A DNA stretch of 64,000 bases. Origin: an uncultured Actinomycetes bacterium (GTDB lineage: Bacteria > Actinomycetota > JAICYB01). The notes beneath the pieces are model-generated. The model saw only the letters and a program-made list of their open reading frames with translations. It made no database searches and had not been told where the DNA came from. Below, piece after piece: positions 1-10,993 of the stretch (position 1 is its first letter; every line of letters starts with the position of its first letter). The stretch spans positions 735,196 through 799,195 of the forward strand of contig CAVXYW010000001.1 of assembly GCA_963766295.1 (NCBI GenBank), in the 5' to 3' direction. Position numbers and translations under genes: made by a program.

Positions 1-679
1 GTCCCTCCAATTCGTACAGGCGTTGTCTCGATTCTTCGATGCGAAGACGCATCACGAGAAGCGCGGCGAACAAGACGGTGAACGCCGCGAGCGAAACGAG
101 CAAGGTGAGCAACATGCTTCCGGGAAGATCGGGGCCGGAGGATCTCAAGACAGTTGGTGTCGGGTGCTGAGTTCTCCACCAGTAGACGGCGAAATGCACT
201 ACCGGGATGTCGAGAGCGCCGATCAATCCGACGACGGCCGAAAGCCGAGCGCGCCGCTCTCCGGGAGCCGAAGTCGCGCGGAATAGGAGATAGCCGGCGT
301 AGATGAGCCAGAGCACGAGCGTTGACGTAAGGCGCGCATCCCATACCCACCAAGTGCCCCACGTCCTATGGCCCCAGATCGGACCGACGGTAAGTACCAG
401 CGTGATGAAAAGCAGACCGACCTCGGCCGCGGAAACCGCGATGCGATCCCAGCGCTCCCAGTCGTCACGACGTGCGAGCACCATCACACTGGCTGCAGCA
501 ACGATGATGAAAGCGAGGTACATCACCCACGCGGTCGGCGCGTGTATGTAGAAGAGCCGTTGCACATCACCCTGTATCACCTCGGTCGGCGCATAGAAGA
601 AAGCAAGCGCTAAGGCGACTGCGATCAGACCGACGGCGCTGATCGATAGCGCCGATAGGACTTTGGCGGGCTGCTTCAT
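1..679 (-). CDS. ccmC: Heme exporter/heme delivery protein CcmC (partial, runs off left edge)
   Basis: Absent from the ORF track (no stop in window). Manual translation from ATG at 679 gives MKQPAKVLS...YIHAPTAW...GPIWGHRTWGTWWVWDARLT (Trp-rich WWD motif)...VHFAVYWWRTQHP. ATGA overlap with ccmB stop. Confidence 0.92.
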   Translation of the reverse strand, partial: MKQPAKVLSALSISAVGLIAVALALAFFYAPTEVIQGDVQRLFYIHAPTAWVMYLAFIIVAAASVMVLARRDDWERWDRIAVSAAEVGLLFITLVLTVGPIWGHRTWGTWWVWDARLTSTLVLWLIYAGYLLFRATSAPGERRARLSAVVGLIGALDIPVVHFAVYWWRTQHPTPTVLRSSGPDLPGSMLLTLLVSLAAFTVLFAALLVMRLRIEESRQRLYELEG

Positions 680-1341
680 TCTTCGAGAACGTACTCGAAA
701 AGAAGCAGGCTCGTGCCCCAGGACAGGACGTCGAATGCACACAGCAGCAGGAACCCGCTCGACACGTCGACGAGGCGTTCGTCGGCCATGTAATGGGCGA
801 GGAGCCGCACGGCGGCGATGGTCTGGGGGACCACCAACGGGAAGAGCAGTATCGGTAGGACGATCTCGCCGGCTCGGGTGCTTCCGCTGACAGCTGCGAA
901 GAGCGTGCCCCAGGAGATCAGTCCGGCCGCACCGAGCAAAGCGATGCCGATCGAAACCGGAACGCCGTCCATGTCTCCGACGAAGAAGAGCGCCGTGACC
1001 GGGACGAGGATCGCGATCAGCACACCGATCACCAGGAAGCTCGAGCTGGCCTTGGCGAGGAACAAGAGCGATGCATCAACCGGTGCTGCACGAAGGCCGT
1101 CCAGCGTGCCGTCGCGTCTTTCGGACTCGAAAGATCTGCGGAACTCGAGAACGCTGGCGAAGACGACGGCGGCCCACAGGAAACCGGCTGCCGCCTTGGG
1201 CCGCGCTTCCGATTCCGGGGGAAGTGCGAATTGAAGAGTCAGGAGGACGGCAACGGCGAACAATGCGAGCGTGCCCAGGCGCTCCAGACTGCGGGCTTCG
1301 GTCAGCGCGTCCTTCCAAAGGAGCCAAAGCAGCTTGCGCAC
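676..1341 (-). CDS. ccmB: Heme exporter permease CcmB
   Basis: 221 aa, about 6 TM; RSFESERRDGTLDGL and LPILLFPLVVP motifs; lies between ccmA and ccmC. Confidence 0.9.
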   Translation of the reverse strand: MRKLLWLLWKDALTEARSLERLGTLALFAVAVLLTLQFALPPESEARPKAAAGFLWAAVVFASVLEFRRSFESERRDGTLDGLRAAPVDASLLFLAKASSSFLVIGVLIAILVPVTALFFVGDMDGVPVSIGIALLGAAGLISWGTLFAAVSGSTRAGEIVLPILLFPLVVPQTIAAVRLLAHYMADERLVDVSSGFLLLCAFDVLSWGTSLLLFEYVLEE

Positions 1342-1343
1342 GA

Positions 1344-1964
1344 CTAAGCGCGTTCGAGCCGGCCGCGGGCCAGCGCATGAACCCGCGCGCTCGCAAGTCG
1401 CGTTCGGTCGTGGAGGGCCGCGATCACTGTGTTTGCTTTGTTGAGGAGTGACTCGACGGCTTGCGCGCCGTCGGCATCGAGGCCGGCGAACGGTTCATCG
1501 GCGATCACCAGATCCGGACTTATGCAGAACGCGCGAGCTACTCCGGCGCGCTGGCGCATCCCCTGCGAGTAGGAACCGACGACCCGCTTGTCGTCGGGAT
1601 CCAAGCCGAGCTCGCTCAGAAGTTCGCGACCTCGATCCAGTGCGCCCGGGGCGTCGTAGAGGTTTCCCCAGAATCGGATGTTCTCGAGAGCGGTCATGCG
1701 TGTGTAAAGGGACGGGGAGTGTGCGATGACACCGATGCGTCGTCGCACACTCGGGTCCGACGTTTCGCCGCCGAGCACGGCCACGCGGCCGGAAGTTGGA
1801 CGCAACAAGCCGCACAGGACCCGCAACAACGTTGTCTTCCCCGCGCCGTTGGCGCCGGTGACGGTGATGTGCTCTCCGGGTTGCACCAGAAGATCCAACC
1901 CGGAAAGCACATCAACGGATCCGAAACGACGGACGAGTCCGGTGACTTCGACGCCTCCACTCAT
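1344..1964 (-). CDS. ccmA: Heme ABC exporter ATP-binding protein CcmA
   Basis: Walker A GANGAGKT, signature YSQGM, Walker B IADEP; short (206 aa); directly upstream of ccmB. Confidence 0.85.
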   Translation of the reverse strand: MSGGVEVTGLVRRFGSVDVLSGLDLLVQPGEHITVTGANGAGKTTLLRVLCGLLRPTSGRVAVLGGETSDPSVRRRIGVIAHSPSLYTRMTALENIRFWGNLYDAPGALDRGRELLSELGLDPDDKRVVGSYSQGMRQRAGVARAFCISPDLVIADEPFAGLDADGAQAVESLLNKANTVIAALHDRTRLASARVHALARGRLERA

Positions 1965-3082
1965 GCGGGTGTCTCGACTTCGTTCGCGAGCGCCGCGGTT
2001 TGCGACTTTCTCCGCAAGCGGCGCCGACGCGATAGCGGGATCGCAACGATCGCGACGGCGAGGACTGCGGCACCGATGGGTCCGGCGATGAGGAAAGGAC
2101 TGGTGGTCTTCGCGACGATCACCAGCGCTGAAACTTTATCCGCACGTTCGAGATCCTCTGCCGAGTACCTACGATAGGAACGTTGCGCGGATGCCGGGCC
2201 GACCTCTGCGTCACCGCTTCGCTCCAGGCCTTCGGACGGTTGCGCGTCGAGCTCGCCTCCAACGAGCAAGTCGAAACGCTCGGTTGGGATCTGGATGGAA
2301 CGCTGGAAACGGATCCCGTCGGCGTCTGACTGAACGGGATAGGTGTACGTGATGTCGTGGCGTCCGGGAAGGATTGGTGTTCTCGCGACGATCTGTCCTT
2401 CGGTGATGGAAGCGCGCCGCTCGTCGAAGCCCTGCTGAACTTGTATCGCAGTGCCGCCGGGCAGCACAGGCAATCGGAGTTCACCGATATACGCGCTTTC
2501 GCCGCCGTTGCGAATGCTCACTGCGTGTACGGCCTGCGCCCCGCGAGAGTCGCCGACGATAGCGACCGACTCCACTTCGACGCGCAGGTCCCCAGCGCTT
2601 CGCGTCGTCTCCGCGACCCGGATTCGGATCGGGTCGCCTCTTTCATTGCCGCCACGCACCACGGGGCCGGCGAATCGCGTCTCGTCGAAAACGGCTTGAA
2701 CGATCGCGGGTCGACCGGGATTGATGTCTGCATCCTCGAAAAGCACTCGTCCGTCTTCATCCGTCTCGGAGGACGCGGCGACCACGAAGTCCCCTTCCTT
2801 CTCGTCGAAGGCGGCGAGCTCGACGGTGATGCCGTCCATCGGCTCGTTGTTTGCGTTCGTGACGAGTGCGTTGACGTCGTCCGTCATCGGTGTGCTTTCC
2901 GCGTCGGGAGCAGCGGTAGACAGCTCAACGTTCGGAATGAGCTCCTCGGGGTCGAGCGCGTTGGTTGCCGCTAGGAACCCCGAAAAGACAACAACGGCAC
3001 CGCCGATACCGACGATGACCGTCGCCAGCGGTCTCGGCATCGCGAGGAAGCCGGAGAGCCGCAGTCGAAGCACGCCCACCAT
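1961..3082 (-). CDS. Membrane-anchored hypothetical protein with beta-rich (Ig/carboxypeptidase-regulatory-like) extracellular region
   Basis: 373 aa ORF with N-terminal hydrophobic segment and C-terminal TM followed by RRRRLRRK; 4-nt overlap with ccmA start. Start uncertain (frame stays open upstream). Confidence 0.65.
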   Translation of the reverse strand: MVGVLRLRLSGFLAMPRPLATVIVGIGGAVVVFSGFLAATNALDPEELIPNVELSTAAPDAESTPMTDDVNALVTNANNEPMDGITVELAAFDEKEGDFVVAASSETDEDGRVLFEDADINPGRPAIVQAVFDETRFAGPVVRGGNERGDPIRIRVAETTRSAGDLRVEVESVAIVGDSRGAQAVHAVSIRNGGESAYIGELRLPVLPGGTAIQVQQGFDERRASITEGQIVARTPILPGRHDITYTYPVQSDADGIRFQRSIQIPTERFDLLVGGELDAQPSEGLERSGDAEVGPASAQRSYRRYSAEDLERADKVSALVIVAKTTSPFLIAGPIGAAVLAVAIVAIPLSRRRRLRRKSQTAALANEVETPA

Positions 3083-3138
3083 GCATAAGGTGACGCCGCC
3101 GAGAGCAAGAGCGATGACGATGGTTGCTTGTCGCAGGC

Positions 3139-3144
3139 TATACT
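3139..3144 (+). promoter_or_regulatory. Putative -10 element for the ccoN-like gene
   Basis: TATACT about 50 nt upstream of ATG 3195; GGAGG Shine-Dalgarno just before the ATG. No convincing -35. Confidence 0.35.
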
Positions 3145-3194
3145 CCGCGCGATCTTCCAGGCAGCGGCTTCAAAGGGCTTTAGATGGAGGATAG

Positions 3195-4607
3195 ATGGTC
3201 GAGGCGCGCGCCACTTCCGCAAATCAAATAGAGCCCGACTTCGCCGCTCGGCAGTCGCTTCTTTGGGCGATCGCTTGGCTCGTTGGCGGTGTGACGGTGA
3301 CACTTGCTGCGCAGCTCCTTCTGATCCGGCCGGACATCACAGGAGATCTCGGCTTTTTGTCTTATGGGCGGCTTCGTGGCGTCGCCGACACCACCATCGT
3401 CTTCGGATGGCTCGCGGTGGCGGGCTTCGCGGCGATCTACGCACTCATACCGCGGATCACCGAGGTGCAGCTCCACAACGAAGTGCTGGGCGCCGCTACG
3501 ACGCTTACTTGGAGCGTCGTCGTAACCGGAGGCATCCTTGCGTTGGTGCTCGGCATAAACCAGGGGCGTCCGTTGGGCGAGCTACCGGCCGGCGCAGATC
3601 TGGGCATGGCCCTTCTGCTCGCCTTCGTCCTGTTCAACGCCGGCGTAACGGTGGTGCGACGGCGGGAACGCACGCTGTACGTGACCGGGTGGTTCCTCCT
3701 CGCCGCGGCTTTGCTCGCACCCGTCGTTTTCGTGATCGGAAATCTTCCCGTTTTTGAAGGCGTTACGGACTCGATCGTGAGCGGCTTCTACCTGAACGGC
3801 ATCGAGATGTTGTGGCTTCTGCCCATCGCGCTGGGTGTCGCCCACTACGTGATACCGGTCGAGACGGGCAAGGCTCTTTACTCCGCGACCCTGGCACGCA
3901 CGACGTTCTGGAGCTTGATCTTCTCCGGCGGCTGGGCCGGACAACGCTTCTTCCTCGGCGGCCCGGCACCCGACTACTTGGAAACGATCGCGGTCGCCAT
4001 GACTTTGGTGCTTCTCGTTCCCGTCCTCTCCTCGGCAGCGAATCTCTATGCGACCGGCCGGGATCGATGGGAGCTGATCTCCAAGTCCTATTCGTTGCGA
4101 TTCGCGACGACCGGACTCGCGCTTCTCGTTGCATGGATTGTTCTTCTGGCGTTCAGCGCGATGCCCGCGGTGTCCCGATTCTTTGGGTTGACGGCGTGGG
4201 GTGCGGGCCTCCGCCATCTCGCGATCTTCGGAGTCTTTTCGTCCTTTGCGTTTGCACTCATCTATCACCTGTACCCGCTGATGGTCGGGCGAGACTGGTT
4301 CTCGCGCTCGGTTGCTTCCTTCCACTTCTGGACGACCCAGATCGGTGTGATCGTCGGCACGGTCGCCTTGTTTGCGATCGGGGCAGCACAGTCGGTCCAG
4401 TCGAGCTTGTCCACGGGAGCACAGGCAACGCTGCCGAACACGAACGTGATCGGGTTGTTGCGGGTTGTATCGGCCGCGGCGTTTGCCGCGGTCGTCGTGG
4501 CGCAGTACGCACTGGCGTACAACACGTTCAGGACTTCGCGGTCCGGTCCCTTCGTTCAGACCCCGTCCACCGGTGTTTTGACGTCGGCAACGGAGCGTTC
4601 GTCTTGA
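3195..4607 (+). CDS. cbb3-type cytochrome c oxidase subunit I (CcoN)-like protein with degenerate metal ligands
   Basis: 470 aa, about 12 TM, collinear with CcoN (SYGRLR, GELP, LYVTGWF, WAG, LRF, HFW), but most ligand His are replaced (see findings). Confidence 0.85.
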   Translation: MVEARATSANQIEPDFAARQSLLWAIAWLVGGVTVTLAAQLLLIRPDITGDLGFLSYGRLRGVADTTIVFGWLAVAGFAAIYALIPRITEVQLHNEVLGAATTLTWSVVVTGGILALVLGINQGRPLGELPAGADLGMALLLAFVLFNAGVTVVRRRERTLYVTGWFLLAAALLAPVVFVIGNLPVFEGVTDSIVSGFYLNGIEMLWLLPIALGVAHYVIPVETGKALYSATLARTTFWSLIFSGGWAGQRFFLGGPAPDYLETIAVAMTLVLLVPVLSSAANLYATGRDRWELISKSYSLRFATTGLALLVAWIVLLAFSAMPAVSRFFGLTAWGAGLRHLAIFGVFSSFAFALIYHLYPLMVGRDWFSRSVASFHFWTTQIGVIVGTVALFAIGAAQSVQSSLSTGAQATLPNTNVIGLLRVVSAAAFAAVVVAQYALAYNTFRTSRSGPFVQTPSTGVLTSATERSS

Positions 4608-5044
4608 AGCTGCGCGCCGATCGCAGGGTCGGACTACTCCTCGGCGGCGTCGTCCTTCTCATGTTCGTAGCCATCGGCGCGACGATCGCGTTGCCGGCGA
4701 CTGATTCGTCCCTGAAAGGCGAAGCTACGGAGTTGTCCGAAGCGGAAGAGCGCGGAATGAAGGTCTACCGAAGCGAAGGCTGTTGGTACTGCCATTCGCA
4801 GTACGTGCGAGATACCGAACGTGGTGGTGATGAGCCTTTGGATGCCGCGGCTTATTCGAGCCGCTCGCCGTCCATGCTGGGACTCGAGCGCATAGGTCTC
4901 GATCTGACGCACGGGCCCACGCTCACAGGCAGCGCGCTCACCGAGTTCCTTGCCGGCGGAGAAGACGGCCACGCCCCGCCGTACGGATACCTGTCGGACG
5001 AAGACCTCGAGGCACTCACCGCTTACCTGTTGTCTTTGCAGTGA
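4604..5044 (+). CDS. cbb3-type oxidase subunit II (CcoO)-like monoheme cytochrome c
   Basis: TTG start overlapping the ccoN-like stop (TTGA); one N-terminal TM; VYRSEGCWYCHSQYVR and RIGLDL match the CcoO EGCxxCHSQ and RTGPDL patterns. Confidence 0.85.
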   Translation: MKLRADRRVGLLLGGVVLLMFVAIGATIALPATDSSLKGEATELSEAEERGMKVYRSEGCWYCHSQYVRDTERGGDEPLDAAAYSSRSPSMLGLERIGLDLTHGPTLTGSALTEFLAGGEDGHAPPYGYLSDEDLEALTAYLLSLQ

Positions 5045-5184
5045 GTCTTCGCGACACCTTCATTCAGCTCGGCTTCGTCGTTCTTGCTGCCGGTGTGGTC
5101 GTCGCCGTCCGAACACTTTTCGTATTCCGCTTCAAGGACAAGCCGAAAGCGAAATCTAAACGGCCCGAACGTCCGAAAACGTGA
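5041..5184 (+). CDS. 47-aa single-TM protein, CcoQ-like by position
   Basis: GTGA overlap with ccoO-like stop; MSLRDTFIQLGFVVLAAGVVVAVRTLFVFRFKDKPKAKSKRPERPKT (one TM plus basic tail). Too short for the ORF track. Confidence 0.55.
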   Translation: MSLRDTFIQLGFVVLAAGVVVAVRTLFVFRFKDKPKAKSKRPERPKT

Positions 5185-8414: not shown

Positions 8415-10203
8415 ATGAGCCAGGGGCTCCAACGATTCCGCCGGCTTGCGCTCGGCACCGCGATCGCAACCCTCGCTCTAACCGGCGTGGGCGGACTGGT
8501 CCGCGGTACCGGGTCCGGTTTGGGCTGCCTGGACGAGTGGCCGAAATGCCGCGGCGGCTGGATCGCACCGATCGAATACCACGCGCTCATCGAATACGCG
8601 CATCGTGCGCTGGCCGGGAATCGTCGTCGTCCTCATCGTTGTGCTTGTTCTTGCAGCTCGTCGCTGGGTAGGGGAGCGACGATCGCTTTTTTACCTCTCG
8701 GCGTCGGCGCTCGTAGTTGTGGTCGCACAAGCTTTGCTCGGCCGTGAAGTTGTTACTTCGGGTCTTCACGCTGCGCTCGTCACCGCGCACTTCTTGCTCG
8801 CGCTGGCACTGGTCGGTTTAGTGACGATCGTTGCTGCGTCCTCGTACTCGTTGGGACAACCAAGCGCTGTCGAAAAGGCGCAGCTCCGTTTAGCGCGAAC
8901 GTCGATCGGCGCAGTCGTTGCGCTCTTGCCGGTGCTCGTGCTCGGAGCTTATGTACGCGAGAAAGGCGCGGGCTCCGCGTTCGGCGACTGGCCGCTCATG
9001 GGCGGCGAGCTGATCCCGTCGTTCGACGCACCAGGGGCCGGCTTGCACTTCGCACATCGGCTTCTAGTGCTGCTGGCATCGGGTCACCTGATCGTTCTTG
9101 CGCTTCGGGCGCGCTCCGACGATCGGCGCGATGTGCGTGTCCTCGGAATCGGCGGGCTGCTTCTCTTCTTTGGACAGGCTCTCGTGGGAGCCGCGAATGT
9201 TTGGACCGGCCTGCAACCGGCCGCTGTCGTCGGACACTCGTCGCTCGCGTATGTGACGTGGGCTGCCTACGTGGCTCTCGTTGTTGTTTCGCGGTACGGC
9301 GCTCAAAGCGGAGGAGGTTCCGCACCGCTGATCCGAAAACCCTTCGCAAGCGTTCGCGCCTACGCGAACCTCACGAAGCCGCGCATCATCATCCTGCTTC
9401 TCGTCACGACGGTTCCGGCGATGGTGCTCGCACAACGCGGCATGCCGCCGCTTTGGTTGATGGGCGCGACTTTGCTCGGCGGGATGATGACGGCCGGCAG
9501 TGCGAACGCTCTTAATCAGTATCTCGAGCGCGACATCGACGAGAAGATGCAACGAACCCGCAAACGCTCCCTTCCATCGCATCTGGTGGATCCAACGCGA
9601 GCACTCATCTTCGCGATCGCTCTCGGCCTCGCCGGGTTCGTTTGGCTGACCGTTGTTGTGAATCTGTTGAGTGCGATCCTTGCCGTGAGCGCGATCGCTT
9701 TCTACGTCCTCGTTTACACACTTCTGCTGAAACGATCGACTCCCCAGAACATCGTCATCGGAGGTGCGGCCGGAGCCGTGCCTGTGCTCGTCGGTTGGGC
9801 CGCCGTAACCGGAACCATCGAAGCACCGGCTTGGGTGATGTTCGCGATCATCTTTCTTTGGACGCCCCCGCATTTCTGGGCTCTCGCGATGCGTTACCGG
9901 GACGACTACGCCGCTGCCGGCGTCCCCATGCTCCCCGTCGTTCGAGGCGATGATGCGACGACGCTGCAGATCTTCCTTTATGCGGTCGTGCTGGTCGTCT
10001 CGACCTTGGTCTTGTCTCCCGTCGGCGGTCTGGGTGTCTTGTATGCGGCCAGTGCAGCGGCTCTTGGCGGAGGGTTCATCTATAAGGCCGTACGTCTCCG
10101 GCTGGCTCCGAGCGCGGCCTCGGCCGTGAAGCTCTTCCGTTACTCGATCACCTACCTTGGCCTGCTGTTCGCAGCGATCGCGGTCGATCGGCTCGTTTGG
10201 TGA
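8415..10203 (+). pseudogene. ctaA-ctaB: Heme A synthase (CtaA/Cox15)-heme O synthase (CtaB/CyoE) fusion interrupted by a +1 frameshift near 8619
   Basis: Frame 1: GLGCLDEWPKC...EYAHR. Continuation in the next frame: IVVVL...HFLLA...HFAHR...GHSS, then CtaB motifs LTKPRII, NQYLERDIDEKMQRTRKR, KRSTPQNIVIGG, WTPPHFWAL, DYAAAGVPMLP. May be a sequencing error. Confidence 0.8.
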
Positions 10204-10261: not shown

Positions 10262-10993
10262 ATGAAGTCTTGGCGACGCCTTCGTTGGCTCATCCCGGCC
10301 GGCTTTCTGCTGGCGACTGTGGCATGCGGTAAAACTCCGGAAACTACCGAGCAAGCGCGTGGCGTCCTTTCGGGAGTGAACATCGTGCTCGCGATGACCG
10401 TCGTCCTCGTGGTCATCGCCGGCGGACTTTTGATCGGTGCGTTCGGGTTCGATCGGTTCGTGCGGTCGCGCAAACGGCTCGCCGAAGTGCCCGCGGAACC
10501 GGAGGAGGAAGGCGACGAGGTCGTGGCCGGTATCACAGTCGGTCGGGCAGGCGTTCCGCGCTGGCTGTACGCGTTCTACGTCCTCATCCCGGTCTTCGCG
10601 ATGCTTTACGTTTTCACGAACATCCCGATCGAAGCCGACGAAGCTGGCGCTGAACCGACTGCAACGCCGCAGGGCCCATGCACCGAGTGCACGATCGTCG
10701 CCAGCGGAATCGCTTTCGACCTCGATGAGATCATCGCTCCAGCGGCGACCGACATCACCGTGACATTCGATAACCAGGACACCGGAGTGCCGCACGACTT
10801 CACGGTTTGGGAATCGGAGGCGGCGGCCGGCGCGGGTGGCGACGCCGGCCAGATCGCGACCAGCGGGACGATCAACGGAGGTGTCAGCAAAGACGTCACC
10901 TTCAATTCCGACGGCGCGGGCGAGTATTACTTCAACTGCACCATCCACCCGCCGTCGATGAACGGCACCTTCGAAGTCGTCGCGGAAGGCTGA
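10262..10993 (+). CDS. Membrane lipoprotein with CcoP/FixP N-terminal-like segment and C-terminal type-1 copper cupredoxin domain
   Basis: GGAG SD before ATG 10262; lipobox-like LATVAC; two TM; GITVGRAGVPRWL; cupredoxin ligands PHDF...CTIHPPSM. Confidence 0.75.
   Translation: MKSWRRLRWLIPAGFLLATVACGKTPETTEQARGVLSGVNIVLAMTVVLVVIAGGLLIGAFGFDRFVRSRKRLAEVPAEPEEEGDEVVAGITVGRAGVPRWLYAFYVLIPVFAMLYVFTNIPIEADEAGAEPTATPQGPCTECTIVASGIAFDLDEIIAPAATDITVTFDNQDTGVPHDFTVWESEAAAGAGGDAGQIATSGTINGGVSKDVTFNSDGAGEYYFNCTIHPPSMNGTFEVVAEG

Follow-up and report, generated by a model that had tools for sequence, protein, structure and literature searches.

The ccoN-like operon

The subject of this study is a gene near the start of a 64,000-nucleotide stretch of DNA (the window) from an uncultured Actinomycetes bacterium (assembly GCA_963766295.1, contig CAVXYW010000001.1; GTDB lineage Bacteria; Actinomycetota; JAICYB01). 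Its product resembles CcoN, subunit I of the cbb3-type cytochrome oxidases, but lacks nearly all of the residues that hold the haem and copper cofactors in CcoN. The gene is the first of three in an operon, and a short conserved element lies in front of it:

3195..4607, plus strand: gene of the CcoN-like pseudo-oxidase, 470 amino acids (aa), with the fold of 12 transmembrane (TM) helices of the C-family haem-copper oxidases, without five of the six histidine ligands and without the cross-linked tyrosine
4604..5044, plus strand: gene of a CcoO-like protein of 146 aa, a membrane-anchored cytochrome c with one haem motif, CWYCH, and a TM helix at its N-terminus
5041..5184, plus strand: gene of a basic 47-aa peptide with a single TM helix, CcoQ-like by position only, belonging to no Pfam family
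3133..3151, plus strand: 19-nucleotide (nt) element GCAGGCTATACTCCGCGCG, without any change in six relatives, the most distant of them with about 65% protein identity

A GGAGGA sequence at 3186-3191 stands just 5' of the ATG at 3195. The start codon TTG of the CcoO-like gene (4604) and the stop codon TGA of the ccoN-like gene overlap as TTGA, and the GTG start of the peptide gene (5041) overlaps the CcoO-like stop in the same manner, as GTGA; the three genes are predicted to be translationally coupled. Beside these 4-nt overlaps, a physical pairing of the N-like and O-like proteins is supported by natural N-O fusions in a sister clade. The 47-aa peptide is kept in the closest relatives (L004, L015 and L009), and a 42-aa gene is found at the same place in L066. 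As in ccoN operons, the N-type gene precedes a CcoO-type gene and the gene of a small peptide. Unlike in cbb3 operons, the dihaem CcoP gene and CcoS are absent here, and no gene for a c-type cytochrome follows the operon.

Within the 19-nt element, the TATACT at 3139-3144 resembles a -10 box and lies some 50 nt 5' of the ATG; the element probably serves as promoter or operator for the ccoN-like operon and for a second operon that runs divergently from it. A simple sigma-70 consensus scan of the intergenic region revealed no full promoter.

Identity and fold of the CcoN-like protein

The Pfam family COX1 (PF00115) matches residues 19-425 of the protein with 128.7 bits (E 3.6e-37, cut-off 34.8), and this score above the gathering threshold, together with the match in fold, places it in the haem-copper oxidase (HCO) superfamily. 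Among the NCBIfam models, those for subunit I of cbb3 oxidases come closest, but the protein stays far under their cut-offs, and for the equivalog TIGR00780 it reaches 118.1 bits where 583 are needed. In a phmmer search of the PDB, residues 19-450 aligned to Pseudomonas stutzeri CcoN (3mk7_A, E 1.7e-29), and a match was also obtained to 9g6b_A (E 5.5e-32). The P. stutzeri protein (FixN; 3MK7/5DJQ, 9G6B) has the same 12-TM fold and is 24% identical to the CcoN-like protein.

An AlphaFold2 model, built on an alignment of 97 sequences, had a predicted local distance difference test score (pLDDT) of 93.2 and a predicted template modelling score of 0.92. Foldseek gave template modelling scores of 0.88-0.90 to CcoN chains (3mk7_A 0.89, root mean square deviation 2.1 Å), and poorer ones to NorB (0.79) and to subunit I of the A and B families (0.69-0.77). 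The best structural matches include the bc1-cbb3 supercomplexes 8smr, 6xkw and 9g83. Because a confident model superposes on the CcoN chains, we conclude that the fold is intact.

The cNOR subunit NorB and the putative 'N2O red' HCO family belong to the same branch of the superfamily, and are C-family relatives that have no tyrosine and work with a cytochrome c subunit. Unlike the CcoN-like protein, NorB keeps all six histidines and the FeB glutamate ligands; the histidines, H341 apart, are missing here, and NorB is the weaker structural match. By fold and descent the protein is a C-family HCO subunit I. It does not qualify as a CcoN on the features that define one: six histidines, the tyrosine, an equivalog-level score, and the presence of CcoP and CcoS.

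Loss of the cofactor ligands

Aligned to 3mk7_A, the motif GRLRPLHTN of CcoN reads GRLRGVADT (H60 replaced by A64), WWYGHN reads GFYLNG (H207 by N201), YIWAGPHH reads GGWAGQRF (Y251 by G245, H257 by R251 and H258 by F252), and GHVH reads GLRH (H345 by L339, with H347 kept as H341). H341 is the sole canonical ligand that survives. The initial annotation of this gene, made by eye, had listed the same residues (A64, N201, G245, R251, F252, L339 and H341) and had concluded that five of the six histidines and the tyrosine were gone from a full-length frame that still has GRLR, the GEL glutamate and HFW. The phmmer alignment reproduces each substitution, the alignment to the hidden Markov model puts no histidine at five of the six positions, and the 470-aa open reading frame (ORF) contains all three of the retained motifs (GRLR, the periplasmic-loop glutamate E122 = E129, and HFW with H377). 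The F-W of TM helix 7 and the YH..P motif are also kept as in CcoN.

As a check that does not depend on the alignment, we counted histidines and cysteines. The whole protein has five histidines (94, 217, 341, 358 and 377) and no cysteine, whereas a canonical CcoN has 13-17 histidines. The six that are invariant in CcoN bind the low-spin haem b (two), haem b3 (one) and CuB (three), and only one of the two haem b ligands is left here. The cross-linked tyrosine of helix VII (Y251) is a glycine, G245, in all 85 full-length family members, and the K-type proton channel of cbb3 oxidases has likewise lost its residues (S240 replaced by A234, and H243 by T, G or S at 237).

Judged by its ligands, the CcoN-like protein cannot build a haem b3-CuB centre and cannot bind a bis-histidine haem b. 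Because the ligands of the binuclear centre are absent, the sequence shows that it cannot reduce O2 or NO, as the initial annotation had held.

Conservation and selection

A word-seeded search of 5.8 billion proteins gave about 95 orthologues with 45-94% identity, all of them from metagenomes or metagenome-assembled genomes, and many labelled 'cbb3-type cytochrome oxidase subunit 1' at their source. In a MAFFT alignment the ligands are missing in every orthologue, whereas the five canonical CcoN sequences included in it read H-H-Y-H-H-H-H at these sites. All ten genomes (eight genera) of the source GTDB class carry an uninterrupted copy with the same loss, and no intact form was found among these genomes and the orthologues. 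The ligands have been replaced by new conserved motifs, YxNG and GGWxGQRF, and the signature of the family consists of A64, D/E65, N201, E204, R235, G245-G246-W247, G249, Q250, R251, R340 and H341. Among the 85 full-length members, its residues are conserved as follows:

G245, G246, W247 and G249: 85/85 each
R251 (TM helix 7): 83/85
D/E65 (TM helix 2): 78/85
R235 (TM helix 7): 78/85
R340 (TM helix 10): 78/85
N201: 76/85
A64: 70/85
E204 (TM helix 6): 69/85
H341: 61/85

The two members that have no R251 also lack E204 and R235.

The ratio of nonsynonymous to synonymous substitution rates (dN/dS), calculated by the method of Nei and Gojobori between the window and its closest locus (L015, dS 0.58), was 0.079 for the ccoN-like gene and 0.075 for its CcoO-like partner. 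The neighbouring genes gave 0.082 (ctaA-ctaB), 0.10 (ccmB) and 0.135 (ccmA). By this measure the ccoN-like gene is under strong purifying selection and is constrained as tightly as the adjoining respiratory biogenesis genes. Decay in a single genome can be excluded, because the orthologues share the loss, the new motif is conserved and dN/dS is low.

The CcoO-like partner and the stepwise loss of cofactors

The CcoO-like protein is only distantly similar to its canonical counterpart. Pfam FixO matches it with E 8.5e-6 and 25.8 bits, under the cut-off of 29.6 bits, and its best sequence matches in the PDB, although weak (E 0.002-0.05), are cbb3 subunit II chains. The AlphaFold2 model, made from an alignment of 8 sequences, was too poor for a fold search (pLDDT 51.5). 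The canonical motif with the distal methionine, SxMPxY, reads GHAPPY in the window. This methionine is kept in many relatives (L006, L007, L010, L019, L021 and others) and replaced in the genus of the window (GHAPPY, GHSPPY or GHEPAY) and in several other lineages, often with a histidine nearby. In the lineage of the window, the haem c of the CcoO-like protein is probably no longer His/Met ligated.

The haem-binding motif CxxCH itself is kept in 23 of 24 distinct CcoO-like partners. In one subclade, represented by two independent assemblies, it has become CxxCA (CWFCA in L008 and CWYCA in L066), and these partners, as read from the motif, can no longer bind haem c. Between L008 and L066 the dN/dS of the CcoO-like gene is up at 0.41, and that of the CcoN-like gene is 0.18. 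Since the CcoN-like body is still constrained where the partner has lost its haem-binding histidine, it must, on this comparison, be selected for a role that is independent of the partner's haem. In the lineage of the window, where the partner is constrained at 0.075, it is most probably still a cytochrome.

We also constructed an IQ-TREE phylogeny of the 85 family members, in which other ligand-less clades served as the outgroup. The three deepest lineages with a histidine at position 64 (P0085, P0078 and P0076, which is L010) also have H341, which means that both axial ligands of the low-spin haem b are kept in proteins whose binuclear centre is already gone. The crown group, to which the window belongs, has A, S or G at position 64. 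H341 has been replaced by Y, F, Q, N or A in 24 of the 85 members, with at least 14 changes in the crown group, and because of these repeated replacements the H341 of the window looks like a relic rather than a working haem ligand. These patterns suggest a stepwise loss of the cofactors: the binuclear centre went first, haem b followed, and the haem c of the partner went last, in a single subclade. This order of loss within a family appears to be new.

Oxidases encoded in the genome

The assembly has a size of 2.9 Mb in two contigs and is 88.6% complete. It contains one other COX1 match, an A-family ctaD on contig 2, which adjoins a ctaC with a fused cytochrome c domain (CVSCH). This set is, from its domains, a caa3-type oxidase and the only oxidase found in the genome. 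Within these 88.6%, no other and thus no intact ccoN, no cytochrome bd, no CcoS/FixS match and no second FixO-like sequence besides the gene 3' of the ccoN-like ORF were found. The initial annotation had proposed, among other roles, a subunit of an intact oxidase encoded elsewhere in the genome. That proposal is weakened, because with no second ccoN, CcoS or FixO found there seems to be no intact cbb3 oxidase for the CcoN-like protein to serve.

Over some 40 bp, the reading of ctaD passes through three frames (C2:841760-841830; LPTF / RRKPLFGYA / FSGIAIGFMGW). This implies two shifts of 1 bp, and one candidate site is a short run of C, which is typical of long-read errors; a real pseudogene is also possible.

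Gene neighbourhood

The divergent operon begins 112 bp from the ccoN-like gene on the opposite strand and extends beyond the start of the window, where window coordinates become negative. On the other side, the three-gene operon is followed by an ABC-2 exporter, a polyprenyl synthase, a CtaA-CtaB fusion, a cupredoxin and a geranylgeranyl reductase. The features of interest are:

1961..3082, minus strand: 373-aa membrane-anchored Ig-like/CarboxypepD_reg-like protein, first gene of the divergent operon
2..1964, minus strand: ccmA, ccmB and ccmC, in the same operon
-7062 to -202: ccmE, ccmF, a 128-aa membrane protein, ferredoxin, cytochrome b6, subunit IV, Rieske and dihaem c, which complete the operon in this order
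-3790 to -3386 (C1:731408-731809): 134-aa 2x[4Fe-4S] ferredoxin (Fer4), at the head of the b6-subunit IV-Rieske-dihaem c genes
8605-10203: fusion of CtaA (haem A synthase) and CtaB (haem O synthase), 532-aa ORF
10262-10993: membrane-anchored cupredoxin (Pfam Cupredoxin_1 and Copper-bind)

The members of the b6c part of the operon, CcmC, CtaA-CtaB and the cupredoxin were identified with Pfam, and the other ccm genes by their similarity to related loci annotated with Pfam. The gene order of the region is identical in every close relative with enough DNA to compare, and the gene of the 373-aa protein is kept at the same place in all of them. The CtaA-CtaB fusion is likewise kept in all relatives, as genes of 596-625 aa in their loci.

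Some smaller observations were made in this region. On the minus strand, the frame of the 373-aa gene extends 5' of its ATG at 3082, through 3083-3135, as a TM-like peptide (LRQATIVIALALGGVTLC...). The DNA of this extension is conserved in relatives and contains no ATG, GTG or TTG in the window, so the true start may be non-canonical or lie further upstream. Between ccmC and ccmE there is a gene of 48-49 aa in L066 (2700-2849) and L067 (2674-2820), which is CcmD-like by its position. The role of the ferredoxin as an extra subunit of complex III seems to be unexplained.

Ligand-less CcoN-like proteins and complex III

Within the family, the ccoN-like gene is always divergent from the operon of ccm, Fer4, b6, subunit IV, Rieske and dihaem c. 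To see how far this arrangement extends, we looked at more distant relatives that lack the ligands too. One clade contains a natural CcoN-CcoO fusion with 31% identity to the window protein (P0102/L013); another has an N-like gene followed by a 272-aa FixO and a 337-aa cytochrome c (P0099/L053); and a third group, L027-L029, is 33% identical to the window protein. All three clades directly and divergently adjoin an operon of Fer4, cytochrome b, subunit IV, Rieske and cytochrome c, with no ccm genes between, and neither ccm nor ctaAB genes are adjacent in the distant ligand-less clades. In five of the sampled genomes of the phylum (G133, G237, G139, G165 and G087), too, the homologue and Fer4 share a contig and are 1-6 kb apart. 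A further clade, which reads Q/Q/G/R/H/Q/Q at the seven sites, follows the ActC/ActD/ActE genes of alternative complex III (ACIII), namely an NrfD-like ActC, an ActD (PF11821, E 1.4e-63) and a cytochrome c. From this gene context, the recurring partner of ligand-less CcoN-like proteins would be a quinol:cytochrome c oxidoreductase.

A search with the family profile against 1.84 billion cluster representatives gave 2415 matches with E<=0.001, of which 387 had E<=1e-30. The best full-length matches were combined with the sequences from the loci to a set of 167. In this set, the ligands are missing from 127 sequences and intact in 34, and the other 6 retain at least three of them. A FastTree phylogeny of the 167 sequences places the family of the window inside a large assemblage, all ligand-less, together with the N-O fusions and the P0099, P0096 and L027 groups, and the ACIII-linked clade falls in a second such assemblage. 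A single origin of all ligand-less CcoN-like proteins is unsupported, since well-supported branches force at least six changes of state; this was a quick tree with long branches, so the count of losses is rough and the deep branches are uncertain. Two other groups of CcoN-like proteins were noted (P0128, P0120, P0183 and P0153). In a small clade several histidine ligands are replaced by tyrosine (e.g. Y-H-Y-H-L-Y-Q), and another group reads HHYHHHM, with methionine in place of the second histidine of haem b.

The window gene, with its FixO-type partner and its place near Fer4-b6c, belongs to this ligand-less CcoN-like assemblage of the Actinomycetota. The other ligand-less clades share with the family of the window the loss of ligands, the FixO-type partner and the position beside a quinol:cytochrome c oxidoreductase, and a motif of the GGWxGxR type is common to several of them. 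They are 26-34% identical to the window protein and have other replacement residues. The family of the window has a much shorter CcoO-like protein (146 aa), no CcoP-like gene, ccm genes that separate it from b6c, and a retained H341.

The bc1-cbb3 supercomplexes of Rhodobacter capsulatus (6XKW), Pseudomonas aeruginosa (8SMR) and an alphaproteobacterial source (9G83) are a precedent for a cbb3 oxidase docked on complex III. These supercomplexes hold a catalytically active CcoN, whereas the association suggested here comes from gene context only, and the complex III at this locus, unlike theirs, is of the split b6/subunit IV type with a ferredoxin subunit.

Discussion

The explanation that fits our observations best is that the CcoN-like protein is a redox-dead membrane core, derived from CcoN and tied to the b6c complex III, which carries a cytochrome c relay. 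We put the probability of this reading roughly at 0.55. The module would probably be a relic of an ancestral supercomplex of complex III and cbb3 oxidase, in which the CcoN-like body stayed on as a structural or docking subunit of the membrane after catalysis had been lost. In the lineage of the window, the CcoO-like protein may still pass electrons through its haem c along the outer side of the membrane, linking the dihaem cytochrome c of b6c to the caa3 oxidase or to the nearby cupredoxin. It is conceivable that the conserved buried charges (D/E65, E204, R235, R251 and R340) hold the helices together in place of the metals. Of the roles named in the initial annotation, that of a scaffold fits best, although the gene context points to complex III (b6c) as the complex it belongs to, and not to an oxidase.

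Several points weigh against this reading. The link to complex III comes from gene neighbourhood. In the family itself the whole 20-kb region is syntenic, which makes adjacency there weak evidence, so that the distant clades have to carry the link. Of 401 sampled genomes of the phylum, 30 have a homologue of the pseudo-oxidase, whereas the Fer4 subunit is present in 158 of the 401 Actinomycetota genomes. The idea of salt bridges in place of metals is a hint, drawn from conservation and from the two covarying sequences that have lost R251. Electron relay, finally, cannot be the universal function, as the CxxCA subclade has lost the histidine of haem c. An obligatory subunit of the Fer4-b6c complex was also considered and rejected, since Fer4 occurs in five times as many genomes of the phylum as the pseudo-oxidase does.

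A wider version of the redox-dead core can be offered tentatively. It would make a wholly non-catalytic HCO subunit I a selected structural core of the respiratory chain across a whole class of Actinomycetota, docking on b6c and perhaps bridging to caa3, with buried glutamates and arginines replacing the metal-histidine bridges of helices 2, 6, 7 and 10, and with the order of decay recorded in the family. We regard this as possible but doubtful.

It is unlikely, in our view, that the protein has been neofunctionalised into an ion or proton conduit, or a transporter, with the buried charges lining a path through the old scaffold. The five charged residues in helices 2, 6, 7 and 10 are indeed kept in 69-83 of the 85 members, and the N-like body is constrained even without a haem-bearing partner. 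On the other hand, the residues of the K-type channel are gone, the sister clades without ligands do not share the pattern of charges and show free variation at the former active-site positions, and clusters of arginine and glutamate suit structural salt bridges better than a permeation path.

A biogenesis factor is also improbable. Such a protein would be a chaperone or platform for cytochrome c maturation, for the delivery of haem A or for the assembly of caa3, with the subunit I fold as a surrogate, and the place of the gene between ccmABCEF and ctaA-ctaB, in a region that is conserved together throughout the family, is what would be expected of it. The distant ligand-less clades, however, adjoin the genes of complex III and not ccm or ctaAB, and a CcoO-type partner with a haem site of its own is what one would look for in a mature complex rather than beside an assembly factor.

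The initial annotation had also suggested a one-haem sensor, and H341 could in principle bind a haem b, either five-coordinate or with another sixth ligand, in a c-to-b electron sink or a sensor of gas or redox state. This histidine is present in the window and in most of the family, and the basal lineages P0076/L010, P0078 and P0085 keep both histidines of haem b. But its partner ligand is alanine in 70 of the 85 members, and the many replacements of H341 elsewhere in the family follow the pattern of a decaying relic, which makes this role quite improbable.

We give very little credence to a catalytic O2 or NO (or N2O) reductase with unconventional ligands (Asn, Glu, Gln or Arg). Haem b3 would be without a proximal ligand (L, V or I at 339), there is an arginine at a CuB position, and the protein as a whole has only five histidines and no cysteine; we know of no HCO that works without a high-spin haem. 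HCO families with altered sites do exist, such as gNOR, which has aspartate in place of a CuB histidine, and a putative 'N2O red' is placed near cNOR in the HCO survey of Murali et al. 2024 (PMC11214002). That the gene is a recent pseudogene or an assembly artefact of one genome is hardly credible: the assembly does have indel errors elsewhere, in the split ctaD, but the ORF is intact in 10 of 10 class genomes and about 95 metagenomic orthologues, with a dN/dS of 0.08 and a conserved new motif.

In a search of the full-text literature we found no description of a ligand-less CcoN, although absence there is no proof of absence. Muntyan 2015 reportedly shows a tree with an 'unknown group'. The survey by Murali et al. 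distinguishes the A, B and C families, several NOR families, NOD and the putative 'N2O red' near cNOR, and the accessible part of its main text mentions no ligand-less family (PMC11214002). Actinobacteria have been stated to lack cbb3 oxidase (PMC5829832). New here are a family of its own, in which the CcoO-like partner is short and CcoP is lacking, its conserved replacement signature, the order in which its cofactors were lost, and a subclade without haem c that separates the role of the body from the role of the cytochrome.

The finding has a practical consequence. The presence of cbb3 oxidases is taken in genome surveys, such as one of Acidobacteria (PMC5900883), as a sign of microaerobic, high-affinity respiration. 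That inference is wrong for this lineage and for roughly three quarters of the nearest 50%-identity clusters that were examined, in which the ligands are missing too. The automatic label 'cbb3-type cytochrome c oxidase subunit I' is misleading, and the only O2 reductase of the organism appears to be the caa3 oxidase.

The CcoN-like protein clearly exemplifies a pseudo-enzyme within the central machinery of respiration, and it is as tightly conserved as the adjoining genes of haem A synthesis. Its repeated tie to quinol:cytochrome c oxidoreductases, b6c here and ACIII elsewhere, points to an undescribed accessory of complex III with a structural or electron-relay role, and to an origin in ancient supercomplexes of complex III and cbb3. 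The graded series found in these proteins, from both haem b histidines to one, to none, and to the loss of haem c, gives testable constructs for the contribution of each cofactor. If the core is indeed wholly non-catalytic, the family would be a natural series for asking what the scaffold of an oxidase does once its chemistry is gone.

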